A stretch of DNA of 64,000 nt, taken from the sequence record NC_054917.1. One strand, given 5' to 3'. A program made the translations under genes and the position numbers. The notes under the pieces were generated by a model. It had not been told where the DNA came from, did not search any database, and saw only the letters and a program-made list of their open reading frames with translations. Positions 2,854 through 46,636 of this stretch are shown one piece after another. Source of the stretch: Escherichia phage vB_EcoM_G50. Positions within the stretch are counted from its first letter, which is position 1. The number at the start of each line of letters is the position of its first letter.

Positions 2854-2899
2854 AGTATTTCCTTAGGTTAATTAAGATTTAAAATCCATGAGAGTATTA

Positions 2900-3073
2900 T
2901 ACTCCGGATAGTTTGTAAACTATTTCAACATCGCCTTTTGCTGCTTTATAACCTTCAGCCCAAGATACAACCGAGTTTTTATCTGAAGATTCAAATTCTG
3001 GCATTGGACTTTCATCAATGTTCACACAGTATGTTTCTTCATTTTCGTCAAACCAAATAGTTAAAGTAGTCAT
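2900..3073 (-). CDS. small hypothetical protein (~57 aa)
   Basis: ATG at 3071-3073 preceded by GGAGAAATAAATG; acidic product MTTLTIWFDENEETYCVNIDES...; below the ORF-track size cutoff. Confidence 0.3.
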
Positions 3074-3141: not shown

Positions 3142-3417
3142 TTATTTCATATTATTGAAATATTCTTCTGCGATTTCATCGTTATCGTGGTAAACTTTAG
3201 AAGACAGTTTAACATAACCTTCAGCAGTGAACATATTAATCACAACTTTTACAGTATACCACTGACCGTCTTCATTACCCATTACTGCGTAAGTTTCAAA
3301 CATCAGATGGTCAGGACCGATAACTTTAATATCATTCACTGTACGACCGAAATCTTCTGAAACGCATTTCATAAAGAAGTTGAACAGTTCGCCGTAATTA
3401 TCCATTTCATTCTCCAA
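3142..3417 (-). CDS. hypothetical protein (91 aa)
   Basis: ORF with early-promoter-like module immediately upstream. Confidence 0.5.
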   Translation of the reverse strand: MENEMDNYGELFNFFMKCVSEDFGRTVNDIKVIGPDHLMFETYAVMGNEDGQWYTVKVVINMFTAEGYVKLSSKVYHDNDEIAEEYFNNMK

Positions 3418-3500: not shown

Positions 3501-3644
3501 AAAGTTTTAGGGAATTCTAGGGAAGGGAGGGGCAATTAAAGGATAGGATAATATATTATAAAGGGTAGAAACTAAATGATGCCTAGAGAGGTCCAGAAAG
3601 GCCTAGATGCCAAAAAGCCCTATCATTTAGATAGGGATTTAAAA

Positions 3645-4208
3645 TTATTTATCTAGTTTAGTTATTATAGCTTCTACGGCAGCTTTTAGCTTAGATGCGG
3701 TGTTAATACGATTTTTAATTTCAGTATACGCATCGCCAAGAACATCAAGGCTATCAGAATAAACACTTACACTATTGCGTTCGCTATTTGAAATAGAACC
3801 TTTAGTTTTACGATCAAAATCGGTGTACACGTCTTGAAGATCACGCGCTGCCTTCTTTGCATCATCCAATGCATCAAGAGCTTTATTCAAAGCATTAACG
3901 TATTTTTTAGTGTCGAACATATTCTTAGAAATTTTAGCAGGTGCACGTTCAGGAGTAGCTAATACAGATTTAGGAACCTGAGCGCCAGATGCCAATTTCT
4001 TAGAAATTTTGAAAAACGCTTTATTGAATTTATTTTCTTGACTCATCGTAAAAGAACTATTATCGATGTTGTACATTTCAATAGCTTTAGCTTTCCACTT
4101 AAGAAAATCGCCGCGGTCTTTTGGGTCCAAGTGGAAAAATACTTTAGTAAGATCTGCTTCAGATGGTAATTTTGCTGCTTCGGTTAAAAATTCGGCATAG
4201 GTTTTCAT
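3645..4208 (-). CDS. internal-protein-like head protein (IPIII-like, 187 aa)
   Basis: N-terminus MKTYAEFLTEA matches recalled T4 internal-protein capsid-targeting leader with L-x-E gp21 cleavage site; lysine-rich. Confidence 0.6.
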   Translation of the reverse strand: MKTYAEFLTEAAKLPSEADLTKVFFHLDPKDRGDFLKWKAKAIEMYNIDNSSFTMSQENKFNKAFFKISKKLASGAQVPKSVLATPERAPAKISKNMFDTKKYVNALNKALDALDDAKKAARDLQDVYTDFDRKTKGSISNSERNSVSVYSDSLDVLGDAYTEIKNRINTASKLKAAVEAIITKLDK

Positions 4209-4300
4209 TTAAAATCCTTGAAATAATTTATCGGTTGGTTATTAATTATTTATTACTTTGTTATTATCCGTAACAGCATTCTCTATGTGATTCAAACTAA

Positions 4301-4325
4301 AAACCCCAACCTTTCGGTCGGGGCT
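4301..4325 (-). terminator. stem-loop GCCCCGACCGAAAGGTTGGGG plus U-tract
   Basis: Hairpin directly 3' of ORF 4333..4806; near-identical copy at 4859-4885. Confidence 0.6.
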
Positions 4326-4332
4326 AAGAATG

Positions 4333-4806
4333 TTATTTGATTTGTTTAGCAGACCAAATGCGGTCTTTGATGATTTTTTGAATGTCTTCAACATACTCTA
4401 GGTCATGAGCATGTGGGTTATCTTTGAAACTATAAGCACGAGCTAGTTTTTGGCCTTCAGTTTTGATTACTAAAAGCTCTTTAAGGATAGCTTCATATTT
4501 AGCGATAATTCCTTTAACAATATTTTTTTCTTGTGCAGCTTTAGGATCTGCTTTAGGAGCAGGTTTACCCGAAGCCTTTGCAAAAGCAGCACCAGTAGCA
4601 ACTAAACTTTTCCAGGCCATACTAACCGCATTTCCTGTAAATCCTTCTGCTTTCATGTCGCGAGCAAACTGGAATCGTGATTCGTCAGAAGCATCTTTAT
4701 AGGAATATTTACCCGCTGCAATGGCTGCTTTTGCGACAGCTTGAATTTCGGTGCTAGATGCTTCATTTAACACCGCTTCATTTAAAAATTGAGCATATGA
4801 TTTCAT
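4333..4806 (-). CDS. internal-protein-like head protein (IPII-like, 157 aa)
   Basis: N-terminus MKSYAQFLNEA (capsid-targeting-like leader, L-x-E site); late promoter TATAAATA just upstream. Confidence 0.6.
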   Translation of the reverse strand: MKSYAQFLNEAVLNEASSTEIQAVAKAAIAAGKYSYKDASDESRFQFARDMKAEGFTGNAVSMAWKSLVATGAAFAKASGKPAPKADPKAAQEKNIVKGIIAKYEAILKELLVIKTEGQKLARAYSFKDNPHAHDLEYVEDIQKIIKDRIWSAKQIK

Positions 4807-4846
4807 CTTATTTCCTGTTTTAATTCGTGGATTTAATATACTACTA

Positions 4847-4854
4847 TATTTATA
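4847..4854 (-). promoter_or_regulatory. T4 late promoter TATAAATA
   Basis: Plus strand tatttata = minus-strand TATAAATA about 40 nt upstream of ORF 4333..4806. Confidence 0.6.
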
Positions 4855-4858
4855 CTAA

Positions 4859-4885
4859 AAAGCCCCAACCTTTCGGTCGGGGCTA
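4859..4885 (-). terminator. stem-loop GCCCCGACCGAAAGGTTGGGGC plus U-tract (repeat copy)
   Basis: About 33 bp nearly identical to 4293-4328; lies 3' of the structured region 4886-5195. Confidence 0.6.
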
Positions 4886-5195
4886 AGCCTTGCGGCAACC
4901 TTGTCGGGGTTCCACCTGCTAAGGCAAGTGTTTGTACGAAACGCCGGGATTCGAACCCGGTTATTAAGCAGTTGACGCTACTTAATATTTTTAAAAGGCC
5001 ATATCTCGACCATATCCGAACGTTCCGTCAAAAACGCTACTCGGCTTACGGCAAAGATATTTCCTCGAATCGATAATTCGGTGCGCCGTTTCTGCTGTGA
5101 TGTAAGAGGGCATCAACAAATCATAAAGATTTATTAACACAATTCCTTACCCAGGGAACATCAGTCCGACGACTTACCGGTAGCGACCCGGTTTC
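4886..5195 (-). ncRNA. candidate structured stable RNA
   Basis: About 310 nt with no ORF of 60 aa or more, downstream of the tRNA operon; minus strand has a tRNA T-arm-like CCGGGTTCGAATCCCGG and several GC hairpins; ends at a terminator. Confidence 0.3.
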
Positions 5196-5546
5196 TTAAT
5201 ATTCTTTTAAAGCATCAATCTGTTCACGACGTTTACGCCATAAATCAATTGCTTCATACGCAGATTCAGCATTTCGAATTGGACGGCATTTATATAAAGA
5301 CTTGTGATTTTGATATTGCGTAGATAACGGAATTTTATCTAAAAGGTCTTTACGTTCAAAGTATTCGTAACCATCTAAGCCAAATGAACGATTTTTGAGA
5401 AATTGCCAATGACCAAATTCGTTTTGAATATAAATATAATCCGCGTGTTGATAAAGTAAATTAATTTCACGAAATGAGATATGTTTTTCATATTCATTGA
5501 AGTAAAATGTTAAATCATGAACTACTAAATAAACATTACCTTTCAT
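5196..5546 (-). CDS. hypothetical protein (116 aa)
   Basis: ORF directly 3' of tRNA-Arg on the same strand; no recognised motif. Confidence 0.45.
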   Translation of the reverse strand: MKGNVYLVVHDLTFYFNEYEKHISFREINLLYQHADYIYIQNEFGHWQFLKNRSFGLDGYEYFERKDLLDKIPLSTQYQNHKSLYKCRPIRNAESAYEAIDLWRKRREQIDALKEY

Positions 5547-5565
5547 ATTTTCCTCACTTATAATT

Positions 5566-5641
5566 GGTCGAGGCAGTAGGGATCGAACCTACGACCTAGG
5601 ACTTAGAAGGTCCTTGCTCTTCCTTCTGAGCTATGCCCCGT
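5566..5641 (-). tRNA. tRNA-Arg (UCU)
   Basis: Cloverleaf; acceptor CGGGGCA/TGCCTCG; anticodon loop CTTCTAA; T-loop GGTTCGATCC; CCA encoded. Confidence 0.85.
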
Positions 5642-5645
5642 AATT

Positions 5646-5721
5646 GGGGTGACCGATGGGAGTCGAACCCATGACTACGAGAATCACAATCTTGAGTTCT
5701 ACCAACTGAACTACGGCCACA
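5646..5721 (-). tRNA. tRNA-His (GUG), tentative
   Basis: Acceptor GTGGCCG/CGGTCAC, discriminator C, CCA encoded; anticodon loop TTGTGAT; one A-C mismatch in anticodon stem; no encoded G-1. Confidence 0.6.
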
Positions 5722-5835
5722 TTAATACCTACTCCAACAATCAAGATGTCTTCACACGAAATTAAGAGAAGAGTGATCAGTTCAACCCCGATAATCGCGT
5801 CAAGTAGATATTAATGTGACAACTGTCACAAATTT
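5722..5835 (-). ncRNA. candidate small RNA in tRNA-cluster gap
   Basis: 113-nt gap between tRNA-Asn and tRNA-His; contains palindrome GTGACAGTTGTCAC; no ORF; no folding done. Confidence 0.2.
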
Positions 5836-5910
5836 GGCGGACGTGATAGGATTCGAACCTATAACCAATCGCTTAACAGGCGATCGCTCTGCCATTGAGC
5901 TACACATCCA
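5836..5910 (-). tRNA. tRNA-Asn (GUU)
   Basis: Acceptor GGATGTG/CACGTCC; anticodon loop CTGTTAA; T-arm ATAGGTTCGAATCCTAT; CCA encoded. Confidence 0.8.
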
Positions 5911-5914
5911 AATT

Positions 5915-6001
5915 GGTGGGGAGTGATGGAGTCGAACCACCCGAGTCGCAATGACAATGGATTTACAGTCCACACCGCTACCTCTACGGGATAACTCCCC
6001 T
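5915..6001 (-). tRNA. tRNA-Tyr (GUA), long variable arm
   Basis: 87 nt; acceptor GGGGAGT/ACTCCCC; anticodon stem-loop GTGGA-CTGTAAA-TCCAT; CCA encoded. Confidence 0.8.
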
Positions 6002-6014
6002 TAATTCTTAATTT

Positions 6015-6089
6015 GGTGGCCCTGGGTGGAATTGAACCACCATCTGGCGATTATGAGTCGCTTGCTTGAACCTTCCAGCTACAGGGCCT
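6015..6089 (-). tRNA. tRNA with CAU anticodon (Ile2 or Met)
   Basis: Acceptor GGCCCTG/CAGGGCC; anticodon loop CTCATAA; T-arm GTGGTTCAATTCCAC; CCA encoded. Confidence 0.75.
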
Positions 6090-6090
6090 T

Positions 6091-6166
6091 GGTGCTGATT
6101 GACGGAATCGAACCGCCGACCTTCTCATTACAAGTGAGTTGCTCTACCTACTAAGCTAAATCAGCA
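6091..6166 (-). tRNA. tRNA-Thr (UGU)
   Basis: GCTGATTTAGCTTAGTAGGTAGAGCAACTCACTTGTAATGAG...; anticodon loop CTTGTAA; CCA encoded. Confidence 0.9.
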
Positions 6167-6171
6167 AAACT

Positions 6172-6261
6172 GGCGGAGGCGATAGGATTTGAACCTATGA
6201 GTCGCCGGAGCGACTGCCGGTTTTCAAGACCGGTGCATTAAACCACTCTGCCACGCCTCCA
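6172..6261 (-). tRNA. tRNA-Ser (UGA), long variable arm
   Basis: 90 nt; acceptor GGAGGCG/CGCCTCC; anticodon stem-loop CCGGT-CTTGAAA-ACCGG; CCA encoded. Confidence 0.85.
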
Positions 6262-6263
6262 GT

Positions 6264-6337
6264 CTCCATACAAGGATTTGAACCTTGGACCTCCTGATCC
6301 CAAATCAGGCGCTCTACCAAACTGAGCTACACGGAGT
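6264..6337 (-). tRNA. tRNA-Pro (UGG), no encoded CCA
   Basis: Acceptor CTCCGTG/TATGGAG; anticodon stem-loop CCTGA-TTTGGGA-TCAGG; 2 nt from tRNA-Ser. Confidence 0.8.
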
Positions 6338-6346
6338 AAATTAAAT

Positions 6347-6421
<75 letters not shown>

Positions 6422-6426
6422 AATTT

Positions 6427-6513
6427 GGTGCGAGAAGTGGGACTCGAACCCACAAGGAAATCATTCCGCAGCATTTTAAGTGCTGTGCCTTTACCAATTT
6501 GACCATTCTCGCG
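6427..6513 (-). tRNA. tRNA-Leu (UAA), long variable arm
   Basis: 87 nt; acceptor GCGAGAA/TTCTCGC; anticodon stem-loop CAGCA-CTTAAAA-TGCTG; CCA encoded. Confidence 0.85.
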
Positions 6514-6514
6514 C

Positions 6515-6587
6515 TGGGAATAAAGGACTCGAACCTTTGCATCCTGGAATCAAAATCCAGTGCCTTACCAACTTGGCTAATTCCCAA
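6515..6587 (-). tRNA. tRNA-Gln (UUG), no encoded CCA
   Basis: Acceptor TGGGAAT/ATTCCCA; anticodon stem-loop CTGGA-TTTTGAT-TCCAG; 1 nt from tRNA-Leu. Confidence 0.8.
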
Positions 6588-7640: not shown

Positions 7641-7928
7641 TTACAAAAGATTTTTAGCAATAATCTTGAGATGTGCCGCAGAAATGTGTTTAGCTTTAAA
7701 CAACGCAGTTTCTTCAGCAGGAGAGATAATGATTGTAGCACCATCCTTTTTAGCAGACCACCCATCACCTAGGTAAACAGTACCTTTGATTTCTTCGCCA
7801 TCAACCAAACTAATCATTGGTTTACCTTCTCGTCCTTTATTTGCTTTAATAACTTCAGAAGTAAGAGTAGCTTCAGTAATAGTAGAAACCGGGGTAGTTG
7901 TAGAAGTAAATTCTTTGAAAGTTTTCAT
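7641..7928 (-). CDS. ipI: internal protein I (IPI) precursor
   Basis: 95-aa product MKTFKEFTSTTTPVSTITEATLTSEVIKANKGREGKPMISLVDGEEIKG... matches recalled T4 IPI. Confidence 0.85.
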   Translation of the reverse strand: MKTFKEFTSTTTPVSTITEATLTSEVIKANKGREGKPMISLVDGEEIKGTVYLGDGWSAKKDGATIIISPAEETALFKAKHISAAHLKIIAKNLL

Positions 7929-36255: not shown

Positions 36256-36256
<1 letters not shown>

Positions 36257-36501
36257 TGGAAGGTTTAATTGAAGCTATTAAATCAAACGACCTCGTAGCC
36301 GCTCGTAAATTATTTGCTGAAGCCATGGCTGCAAGAACGATTGATTTAATTAAAGAAGAAAAAATCGCTATCGCTCGTAATTTCTTAATCGAAGGTGAAG
36401 AACCTGAAGACGAGGATGATGAAGACGAAGATGGTGATGATAAAGACGACAAAAAAGACAAAGACTCTGACGAAGATGACGAAGACGAGGATGATGAATA
36501 A
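36256..36501 (+). CDS. 67: prohead core protein gp67
   Basis: 81 aa with poly-acidic C-terminus ([12 protein letters not shown]...). Confidence 0.85.
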
Positions 36502-36926
36502 TGCTTCTGATCCCTGAAACTCATGAATTAGTTCTCGAGAATGTCGAAGCACTTATTCCTGAAGCACAGGGTCGCTTTGACGAATTGTCTTCTGCTTTAA
36601 ATAAAGACGATATAAATACAATTGTCGAGAATATGCTTGATGATGAAACTGATTTAGCAGTTGCATTAGCTTCTATTAATGAAAATATGCCGTTAAATGA
36701 ATTCATTGTTAAGCATGTTTCAGCTCGTGGTGAAATTACACGTACTAAAGACCGCAAAACACGCGAACGTAATGCATTTCAAACCACTGGGCTGTCTAAA
36801 GCAAAACGTAGACAAATTGCTCGCAAAGCTACCAAAACGAAGATTGCCAATCCAGCAGGTCAATCTCGTGCTCAGCGTAAGCGTAAAAAAGCTCTTAAAC
36901 GCCGTAAAGCATTAGGATTAAGCTAA
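36501..36926 (+). CDS. 68: prohead core protein gp68
   Basis: 141 aa; basic C-terminus; between 67 and 21. Confidence 0.85.
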
Positions 36927-37564
36927 TGAATGAACCCCAATTACTAATTGAAACTTGGGGTCAACCTGGCGAAATTATTGATGGTGTGCCAATGCTTGAA
37001 TCCCACGATGGAAAAGACTTAGGTTTAAAACCGGGTTTATACATCGAAGGAATATTCATGCAAGCAGAAGTCGTCAATAGAAATAAACGTCTTTATCCAA
37101 AACGCATATTAGAAAAAGCGGTAAAAGACTATATTAATGAGCAAGTTTTAACTAAACAAGCTCTCGGAGAATTAAATCATCCTCCACGCGCTAATGTTGA
37201 CCCGATGCAAGCCGCTATCATTATAGAAGATATGTGGTGGAAAGGAAATGACGTATACGGACGAGCTCGTGTTATTGAAGGTGACCACGGTCCTGGAGAT
37301 AAATTAGCAGCTAATATTCGTGCCGGATGGATTCCAGGAGTTTCTTCTCGTGGATTAGGTTCATTGACTGACACAAATAAAGGTTATCGTATCGTAAACG
37401 AAGGATTCAAATTAACTGTAGGTGTTGATGCAGTATGGGGTCCAAGTGCTCCAGATGCATGGGTAACTCCTAAGGAAATTACCGAATCACAGACGGCGGA
37501 AGCCGATACAAGTGCCGATGACGCCTATATGGCTCTCGCAGAGGCCATGAAAAAAGCGTTATAA
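36926..37564 (+). CDS. 21: prohead core protease gp21
   Basis: 212 aa as in T4. Confidence 0.9.
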   Translation: MNEPQLLIETWGQPGEIIDGVPMLESHDGKDLGLKPGLYIEGIFMQAEVVNRNKRLYPKRILEKAVKDYINEQVLTKQALGELNHPPRANVDPMQAAIIIEDMWWKGNDVYGRARVIEGDHGPGDKLAANIRAGWIPGVSSRGLGSLTDTNKGYRIVNEGFKLTVGVDAVWGPSAPDAWVTPKEITESQTAEADTSADDAYMALAEAMKKAL

Positions 37565-37567
37565 ATA
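37560..37567 (+). promoter_or_regulatory. T4 late promoter TATAAATA (gene 22)
   Basis: Exact octamer overlapping gene 21 stop. Confidence 0.55.
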
Positions 37568-37594
37568 TTATTATCTAAACAACAGGACTACAAA

Positions 37595-38404
37595 ATGCTT
37601 AAAGAACAACTGATTGCTGAAGCGCAAAAAATTGATGCTTCCGTTGCTCTTGATAGTATTTTCGAATCAGTTAATATTTCTCCGGAAGCAAAAGAAACTT
37701 TCGGCACTGTATTCGAAGCTACCGTCAAGCAGCACGCCGTTAAATTAGCTGAATCTCATATCGCTAAAATTGCTGAAAAAGCAGAAGAAGAAGTAGAAAA
37801 AAATAAAGAAGAAGCCGAAGAAAAAGCTGAGAAGAAAATCGCTGAGCAAGCTTCTAAATTCATCGACCATCTTGCGAAAGAATGGCTCGCTGAAAATAAA
37901 TTAGCAGTTGATAAAGGCATCAAAGCCGAACTGTTTGAATCCATGCTTGGTGGATTAAAAGAGCTCTTTGTTGAACACAACGTTGTTGTTCCAGAAGAAT
38001 CAGTTGATGTTGTGGCTGAAATGGAAGAAGAGCTGCAAGAACATAAAGAAGAATCAGCTCGTCTGTTCGAAGAACTCAATATGCGCGACGCATATATCAA
38101 TTATGTGCAGCGTGAAGTGGCATTGAGCGAAAGTACTAAAGATCTGACTGAGTCTCAAAAAGAAAAAGTCTCTGCTCTGGTCGAAGGTATGGATTATTCA
38201 GATGAATTCTCAAATAAATTGAGTGCCATCGTAGAAATGGTGAAGAAGTCTAATAAAGATGAAAGCACTATTACTGAGGGTATAAATACTCCTGATACTG
38301 AAGCAGCCGGACTGAATTTCGTCACTGAAGCTGTAGAAGATAAAACTGCACCTGGTGCAGAAGATATTGTAAGTGTATATGCGAAAGTCGCATCTCGTTT
38401 CTAA
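37595..38404 (+). CDS. 22: prohead core scaffold protein gp22
   Basis: 269 aa; highly acidic, helical; gene order. Confidence 0.9.
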   Translation: MLKEQLIAEAQKIDASVALDSIFESVNISPEAKETFGTVFEATVKQHAVKLAESHIAKIAEKAEEEVEKNKEEAEEKAEKKIAEQASKFIDHLAKEWLAENKLAVDKGIKAELFESMLGGLKELFVEHNVVVPEESVDVVAEMEEELQEHKEESARLFEELNMRDAYINYVQREVALSESTKDLTESQKEKVSALVEGMDYSDEFSNKLSAIVEMVKKSNKDESTITEGINTPDTEAAGLNFVTEAVEDKTAPGAEDIVSVYAKVASRF

Positions 38405-46405: not shown

Positions 46406-46636
46406 ATGTTACTAGAATTTAAACAATTTCTTTATGAAGCTTCTATTGATGAATTTATGGGTAAAATTGCCTCTTGTCAAACATTAGAAGGTCTAGAAGA
46501 ACTTGAAGCTTATTATAAGAAAAGAGTTAAAGAAACTGAATTAAAAGATACTGATGACATCTCCGTGAGAGATGCTTTGGCAGGAAAAAGAGCTGAATTA
46601 GAAGATTCAGACGATGAAGTAGAAGAAAGCTTTTAA
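46406..46636 (+). CDS. uvsW.1: UvsW.1 small acidic protein
   Basis: 76 aa from ATG with SD GGAG; ORF track starts it at a TTG at 46394; different frame from uvsW. Confidence 0.7.
   Translation: MLLEFKQFLYEASIDEFMGKIASCQTLEGLEELEAYYKKRVKETELKDTDDISVRDALAGKRAELEDSDDEVEESF

Follow-up and report, generated by a model that had tools for sequence, protein, structure and literature searches.

Two genes between rnaC and e.8 of a T4-like phage encode putative internal proteins with capsid-targeting leaders

In a stretch of 64,000 nucleotides (nt) from Escherichia phage vB_EcoM_G50 (NC_054917.1; hereafter, the window), two genes on the minus strand encode small basic proteins whose N-termini resemble the leader that sends internal proteins (IPs) of phage T4 into the head. 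We refer to the products as A187 (187 amino acids (aa), 3645..4208) and B157 (157 aa, 4333..4806) and propose that they are probably paralogous T4-type internal proteins, encoded at a third ip locus between rnaC and e.8 and delivered by the mechanism described below. Both genes quite probably specify leader-directed head cargo. The chances that the two proteins have an anti-defence role, for which we argue by analogy, appear about even, and a type IV restriction enzyme as their specific target is a tentative suggestion drawn from the same precedents. An initial annotation of this DNA had placed both open reading frames (ORFs) and their starts, MKTYAEFLTEA and MKSYAQFLNEA, correctly, omitting the strand; it spoke of candidate injected anti-defence effectors, and 'candidate' is the right strength for that claim.

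The N-terminal sequences of A187 and B157 are MKTYAEFLTEAAKLPSE and MKSYAQFLNEAVLNEASS, respectively. Their leaders, MKTYAEFLTE/A (nt 4208..4179) and MKSYAQFLNE/AVLNE/A (nt 4806..4762; slashes mark predicted cleavage), match the capsid targeting sequence (CTS) of T4 at the functionally defined positions, including the L-x-E cleavage site, as the initial annotation had supposed. For IPIII, the N-terminal 10 residues are enough to bring the protein into the head; suppressor genetics of this CTS assigned targeting mainly to residues 4 and 7 and processing to residues 8 and 10, and the prohead protease gp21 cleaves after L/I-x-E (PMC9026906, a review of Black's work). Y4, F7, L8 and E10 are all kept in both A187 and B157, with the predicted gp21 motif at residues 8-10 reading LTE in A187 and LNE in B157, where LNE is repeated at 13-15. 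In the T4 record, IPII and IPIII both start with MKTYQEFIAEA.

As a positive control for the leader motif we used the ipI gene of the window (7641..7928, minus strand), which begins MKTFKEF, as already noted in the initial annotation, and matches both Pfam PF11634 (IPI_T4, E 2e-53) and phrog_4363 'internal virion protein'. Across the 64 kb, the strict pattern MK[TS][YF]x[EQ]F occurs at true ORF starts of ipI, A187 and B157 only. A looser regular expression picked up UvsW.1 as well as a Met inside the DNA ligase; thus, only the strict form is specific. UvsW.1 itself (46406..46636, plus strand, 76 aa) has a loosely CTS-like N-terminus, MLLEFKQFLYE, shifted by one residue, a resemblance that we attribute to chance since phrog_1143, to which the protein is assigned, is a helicase-associated family. 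The protease and the scaffold that would recognise the leader are encoded in the window too (36926..38404): scans with phrog_207 and phrog_237 place the gp21 prohead protease at 36926..37564 and the gp22 scaffold at 37595..38404, both on the plus strand.

The leader is also where the family is most strongly constrained. In an alignment of 12 family sequences with 24-49% identity, no columns but M1 and F7 are invariant; L8 and E10 are conserved at 92% and 90%, all 12 sequences have an aromatic residue at position 4, and column entropy is 1.10 bits in the leader against 1.87 in the rest. The leader is therefore the best-conserved segment down to 24% identity, functional positions included, which argues for selection on the leader itself. 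The cleavage-site Glu is kept even where leader length varies among relatives. In B157, a 12-nt sequence that recurs almost perfectly with a period of 15 nt (4759-4785, minus strand; TTAAATGAAGCG GTG / TTAAATGAAGCA) creates the two L-N-E/A sites; relatives with a 10-residue leader are without the extra five codons, so the second site of B157 probably arose by an in-frame 15-nt duplication.

A different account of these leaders would be that the proteins are not packaged at all but are ordinary cytoplasmic late proteins, the leader being a hitch-hiking remnant of ip-type cassette recombination. The promoter-plus-leader module does move between cargos (see below), so that a leader could be acquired passively, and the available virion evidence, which comes from Yersinia phage fD1, is weak. 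The conservation just described, at exactly the functional positions and with the cleavage-site Glu surviving changes in leader length, speaks against passive carriage. So does the detection of the B157 orthologue in purified fD1 particles: the product of fD1 g140, 97% identical to B157, passed the strict particle-associated threshold in liquid chromatography-tandem mass spectrometry (public dataset PXD026812), and so did two products annotated as 'Head protein', g129 (157 aa), which occupies the Ip4 position, and g146 (94 aa), at the ipI position. We consider an unpackaged, purely cytoplasmic role quite improbable.

Under the packaging mechanism that we favour, the first 10 residues would act as a CTS and attach the protein to the core of gp22 scaffold in the assembling prohead. 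There gp21 would cut at L-x-E after Glu10, and in B157 also after Glu15. The released product of 16-20 kDa, basic, rich in lysine and mostly helical, would stay in the head and enter the host together with the DNA. The predicted N-terminus of processed A187 is AAKLPSEADLTK. Processed B157 should begin with AVLNEASSTEIQAVAK or ASSTEIQAVAK, depending on whether the cut falls after E10 or E15, and the uncut protein with MKSYTQFLNEAVLNEASSTEIQAVAK or SYTQFLNEAVLNEASSTEIQAVAK. Once in the cell, the protein would most likely neutralise a host defence, by precedent a type IV enzyme of the GmrSD or McrBC kind.

In A187 the leader holds the sole L/I-x-E, as is the case for IPI, IPII and IPIII. This depletion of internal sites fits the proposal, with about 1.4 sites expected in A187 by a rough estimate, but is not statistically significant (n = 2 proteins). 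The number of internal sites also bears on whether A187 and B157 could be transient prohead-core accessories like gp67 and gp68, degraded by gp21 and gone before DNA is packaged. A core-directed leader and late expression would be common to both kinds of protein, and the extra internal LKE of B157 would suit such a fate; however, A187 is free of internal L/I-x-E, the basic character of both proteins contrasts with the strongly acidic C-terminus of the window gp67, the tryptic peptides of the B157 orthologue came from mature particles, and the genes are non-essential and absent from T2, T4 and T6. A fate of this kind is very improbable. The two proteins are not gp67 and gp68 themselves: the true gp67 and gp68 lie at 36256..36926 and belong to different PHROGs, and A187 and B157 are basic; of internal sites, A187 has none and B157 a single one.

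By sequence and profile comparison, A187 and B157 are diverged paralogues of one small family of T4-like phages, PHROG 2280 (unknown function), which they match over nearly the whole profile (E 8.1e-53 and 5.7e-60, respectively). Compared directly by BLASTP and by hhalign of the two families, they show nothing convincing beyond the leader and a C-terminal helix; the case for paralogy is built on the shared PHROG and on an architecture that becomes common once remote members are aligned. Aligning 13 representatives together with a related 205-aa ORF of genomes L014 and L016 revealed a shared layout of leader, small helical domain (in most cases bearing an AWKS motif), Pro/Ala/Lys-rich spacer and long C-terminal helical hairpin. 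AlphaFold2 models reproduce this layout at moderate confidence (predicted local distance difference test scores of 72.6 for B157 and 59.7 for A187, the latter too poor for use as a search query). An exhaustive profile search over 1.84 billion representatives returned 13 relatives only and no link to any cellular family. Searches of Pfam, NCBIfam and PDB sequences with A187 and B157 gave no specific match, and neither protein matched Pfam PF11634, unlike the ipI product of the window.

In composition the two proteins are lysine-rich like IPII and IPIII, as first reported: lysine makes up 14.4% of A187 and 13.4% of B157, compared with 15.0% of IPII and 13.5% of IPIII. Mature A187 (19.7 kDa) and mature B157 (16.0 kDa) have predicted isoelectric points (pI) of 9.46 and 9.40, and IPII and IPIII of about 9.6. 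BLASTP and profile comparisons against T4 IPII and IPIII, proposed in the initial annotation, limit the similarity to residues 1-12. With the leader stripped, BLASTP against IPI, IPII, IPIII and Ip4 gave nothing significant (E >= 0.46), and hhalign of the family profile with IPII and IPIII confined the alignment to the same 12 residues. We therefore reject orthology with IPII and IPIII, there being no homology across the mature protein and the locus being different; high identity to IPII or IPIII together with unchanged synteny, which would have made these known genes, was not found.

Read from its regulatory signals, each gene is an autonomous late cassette consisting of a late promoter, a Shine-Dalgarno sequence, the ORF and a terminator. 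All of the following elements lie on the minus strand. Downstream of rnaC, a terminator hairpin, AGCCCCGACCGAAAGGTTGGGGCT, with a T-run (4861..4884) marks the 5' boundary of the inserted cassette. The exact T4 late promoter TATAAATA follows at 4847..4854, 48 nt upstream of the B157 start codon, where the initial annotation had reported one. Between B157 and A187 stands a second AGCCCCGACCGAAAGGTTGGGGCT-type hairpin, 97% identical to the first (4302..4325), so that B157 is bracketed by the pair. A variant late promoter with A at -13, AATAAATA, which had been missed earlier, lies at 4247..4254, 46 nt upstream of the A187 start codon, and a third terminator with a different hairpin, CCCTATCTAAATGATAGGG, and a T-run (3618..3636) comes after A187. 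Both genes have their own Shine-Dalgarno sequence and their own intrinsic terminator. Of the T4 late promoters listed by Geiduschek and Kassavetis (PMC2988020; n = 50), 32 match the consensus exactly and 9 carry A instead of T at -13; AATAAATA is this A(-13) form, the commonest variant in that list. Relatives share these signals: TATAAATA is also found in SA21RB, fPS-65, fD1, L014, L015 and L017, being replaced by AATAAATA at -37 in PhAPEC2, and the AATAAATA promoter of the A187 gene is kept in SA21RB, fPS-65, RB69 and PhAPEC2, with GATAAATA in RB14.

The window is DNA of an ime09-like Tequatrovirus: many genomes of this type (F26, SH-2, CrRp10, SA21RB and others) match the 1.7-kb region at 97-99% identity. 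T4 has a single AGCCCCGACCGAAAGGTTGGGGCT hairpin between rnaC and e.8, followed directly by the sequence that is found here after the third terminator; relative to T4, the 1.24 kb is thus an insertion of two cassettes between rnaC and e.8. That this locus differs from the ipII/ipIII locus, as the initial annotation had pointed out, is borne out by the close relative SA21RB, in whose genome ipIII and Ip4 occupy the canonical site and both of the present genes occur as well. The layout is reminiscent of the mobile promoter/stem-loop cassettes (PeSLs) that Arbiol, Comeau, Krisch and colleagues reportedly described in T4-type phages in 2010. In both cases single genes lie between repeated regulatory hairpins, whose positions agree with insertion or swap boundaries; PeSLs carry an early promoter stem-loop, whereas the unit seen here comprises a terminator, a late promoter and a leader-coding segment.

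Using tblastn, we found A187 in 163 and B157 in 510 phage records, assigned to Tequatrovirus, Mosigvirus and, by a match to the N-domain, Jiaodavirus. Among the matches listed, the annotation was always hypothetical or 'phage protein', and cluster look-ups agree; only one UniRef entry departs from this, giving a remote Klebsiella-phage homologue the name 'Internal head protein'. The annotators of RB14 named Ip4, Ip5 and ipI and left the A187 homologue as 'RB14ncORF136c hypothetical protein'. Neither gene is present in the syntenic regions of T2, T4 and T6, which is probably why classical work missed both. Occupancy of the rnaC/e.8 slot is variable: it holds B only in fD1, L009 and L010, A only in RB14 and RB69, and B plus A in this window, SA21RB, PhAPEC2, L011, L012 and L018, and in L014 and L016 a third cargo, the 205-aa ORF, comes after a 184-aa ORF. 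Both genes are carried by ime09 and CrRp10 as well, and B157 occurs in the BASEL phages AndreasVesalius (bas42_0248), AdolfPortmann and WilhelmHis. Both genes are under purifying selection, with ratios of nonsynonymous to synonymous divergence (dN/dS) of 0.06-0.11, and are thus real genes. They are non-essential and variably present in a plastic T-even locus, a trait of the IP class.

The third cargo (L014:3260-3877 and L016:3260-3877) has a Pro/Lys/Ala spacer of about 40 residues, KPAKPAKAPVAKPAAQPKVAAPKPTPKPEPVKEAPK, resembling TonB or histone-H1-like tails, and the 184-aa ORF that precedes it starts with a hydrophobic-looking sequence, MKLLKYLSWILLVPLDFISMVLAVILAP. Further perfect IP-type leaders (MKTYQEFIAE, MKTYQEFITE, MKSYQEFI[AT]E and MKTYKEFIAE) occur at L013:422-694, L015:528-752 and 754-1026, L017:544-816 and in RB69. 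The ORFs with such leaders in L013, L015 and L017 lie about 3.3 kb upstream of e.8, beside tRNA.4-like ORFs, which corresponds to the position of the ipI locus. In RB69, ORF123c (MKTYQEFIAA, without the closing Glu) and ORF124c adjoin denV (L006:1450-2120) and are annotated as hypothetical only.

Comparison of relatives reveals exchange both of whole cassettes and of parts of them. The A gene of the window (3645-4208) is 95.5% identical in nucleotide sequence to that of PhAPEC2, a Mosigvirus (L007:3089-3652; synonymous divergence (dS) 0.16), and its neighbours in the same comparison are 73-88% identical, with dS of 0.55-2.0 for e.8, e.6 and a 116-aa ORF. The A gene is far closer than its flanks, which points to a recent inter-genus transfer of one cassette. 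A finer exchange is seen between L014, which carries the 205-aa gene, and L015, which carries a B-type gene whose N-domain differs from that of the 205-aa gene (L014:3140-3420 compared with L015:2688-2968). The two share a 116-nt block, 96.6% identical, that consists of the terminator hairpin, TATAAATA, the Shine-Dalgarno sequence and the first 48 nt of coding sequence; on both sides of it identity falls to about 42%, and the 3' break comes immediately after the predicted cleavage site. The conservation of this block beside diverged cargo shows directly that the regulatory and leader segments are exchanged as a unit, whatever cargo follows them. Exchange of the leader unit apart from its cargo is a behaviour long attributed to ip genes.

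Even when packaged, the proteins might act inside the particle, as basic DNA counter-ions or as aids to condensation or ejection, rather than as anti-host effectors. Their mature pI of 9.4-9.5 and lysine content of 13-14% accord with such a role, as does the Pro/Ala/Lys-rich linker, about 40 residues long in the 205-aa relative; the lysines of internal proteins contact DNA phosphates, as seen by solid-state nuclear magnetic resonance (PMC3012670). Strong purifying selection and low diversity, moreover, suit a housekeeping task better than a point-mutation arms race. However, the genes are dispensable, missing from the three classical T-even phages and often frameshifted elsewhere, the T-even internal proteins to which a function has been assigned all counter restriction, and the patchy, horizontally exchanged distribution, illustrated by the A gene and its far more diverged flanks, is typical of accessory counter-defence genes. 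We regard a role confined to the particle as unlikely.

The anti-defence role that we consider instead has several precedents. Ip1, Ip2 and Ip3 each inhibit a distinct GmrSD type IV enzyme (Silas et al. 2025, PMC12373910), and the HIDEN-SEQ preprint reports that Bas37_0260, a new internal protein encoded at the ipI locus and sharing only the leader with IPI-III, inhibits McrBC (bioRxiv 10.1101/2025.11.20.689424). Type IV restriction is our leading guess for the target because all four T-even internal proteins of known function block such enzymes. The likeness to IPII and IPIII, inhibitors of GmrSD-ECOR21 and GmrSD-ECOR17, extends over the 10-residue leader MKTYQEFIAE/A with its L/I-x-E at 8-10 and over a small, basic, lysine-rich, dispensable and variably present product. 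IPII and IPIII differ in their denV/e locus and early-type promoter, as opposed to rnaC/e.8 and a late promoter; A187 and B157, for their part, have two conserved helical domains joined by a Pro/Lys linker, with no similarity past residue 12. IPI, the inhibitor of GmrSD-CT596, has an MKTFKEF-type leader and is injected head cargo of the same class, but its leader is 19 residues long and its fold compact alpha/beta, whereas A187 and B157 are predicted to be all-helical. Like our proteins, Bas37_0260 was recognised by its N-terminal packaging signal alone and is otherwise without homologues of known function; unlike them, it has a demonstrated target and occupies the classical ipI locus. The Ip4-Ip10 proteins of T-even phages offer a parallel in organisation, with diverse cargos behind one leader, swapped by recombination in plastic loci, but belong to two classical loci, as gathered from RB annotations (Karam lab) and from the wording of PMC12373910, which refers to 'two Ip loci'.

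Several observations weigh against the proposal as a whole or in part. Docking, gp21 processing, head retention, injection and the anti-defence role are steps that we infer. The fD1 study scored 137 of 277 proteins (49%) as particle-associated, including DenV, lysozyme e and NudE, so that this dataset adds only a small likelihood ratio for packaging of B157, and no virion proteomics for any A187-carrying phage was located in the literature. B157 contains one internal LKE, at 108-110, which gp21 might cut. T4 ipI, ipII and ipIII have early-type promoters, with no TATAAATA within 130 nt, and thus follow an expression programme that differs from that of A187 and B157. Copies damaged by frameshift or truncation occur often, among them those of RB69, fPS-65 and several cluster members: the A-type gene of RB69 is frameshifted into ORF148c and ORF149c (L006:11429-11991), and the B-type gene of fPS-65 is cut to 112 aa (L003:1900-2238). 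In F26, part of the 3' end of the A gene is present a second time (L019:1746-1868). Fold searches returned generic hairpins or the family itself, Foldseek against BFVD the family only, and none gave a functional fold match. Finally, Ip4-Ip10 had no confirmed target when set against 15 GmrSD groups (PMC12373910); thus, an IP-type leader is no guarantee of a demonstrable anti-defence role.

A bolder version of our proposal, which we put forward as a speculative possibility, is that the rnaC/e.8 interval is an unrecognised third IP hotspot of T-even phages, in which one family of fixed design (leader, small helical head, Pro/Lys-rich spacer and long helical hairpin) has its cargo heads swapped behind a mobile module of terminator, late promoter and leader and inhibits defences that have no known phage inhibitor. 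Candidate targets would then be the five further active GmrSD groups for which no inhibitor was reported in 2025 (PMC12373910), or a system outside type IV.

The surroundings of the two cassettes are themselves plastic. The initial annotation had put the genes next to the tRNA cluster; they do lie near it, but are not directly adjacent, since a 116-aa ORF and the rnaD and rnaC homologues intervene before tRNA-Arg. These homologues of the T4 species 2 and 1 RNAs, placed by alignment to the T4 annotation, occupy approximately 4935..5199 on the minus strand, and an Rfam search of 4935-5199 gave no family match at E <= 0.1. The 116-aa ORF (5196-5546, minus strand; phrog_3355, RB69ORF150c-like) sits between tRNA-Arg and rnaD; it is found in T2, fPS-65 and PhAPEC2 and absent from T4 and T6, whose tRNA cluster has segB. 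Eleven tRNA genes (5565-6586, minus strand) compare with eight in T4, the surplus being His, Asn, Tyr and a tRNA with a CAU anticodon (Ile2 or Met in the annotation of relatives). On the other side, the e.8 homologue (3142..3417, minus strand) serves as the flanking landmark, and beyond it a 58-aa ORF (2897-3073, minus strand) takes the e.7 position, as in RB14 (ncORF134c), fD1 and T2, another small replacement in the same plastic region.

Internal proteins are the one T-even accessory class that enters the cell together with the DNA, and the four of known function each disarm modification-dependent restriction with narrow specificity. The class is well known and its diversity was anticipated; the present family is unnamed and its locus probably unrecognised before. 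What lifts the two genes above the routine is that they are widespread yet unannotated and missing from three classical T-even phages, at a time when orphan targets have recently been described. They add to the class a widespread, mostly 'hypothetical'-labelled family, with 163 and 510 deposited genomes for A187 and B157, and a third locus. Their absence from the syntenic region of T2, T4 and T6 allows a clean gain-of-function test of which restricted host turns permissive, and the identical promoter-plus-leader module on different cargos shows how new injected effectors are assembled.

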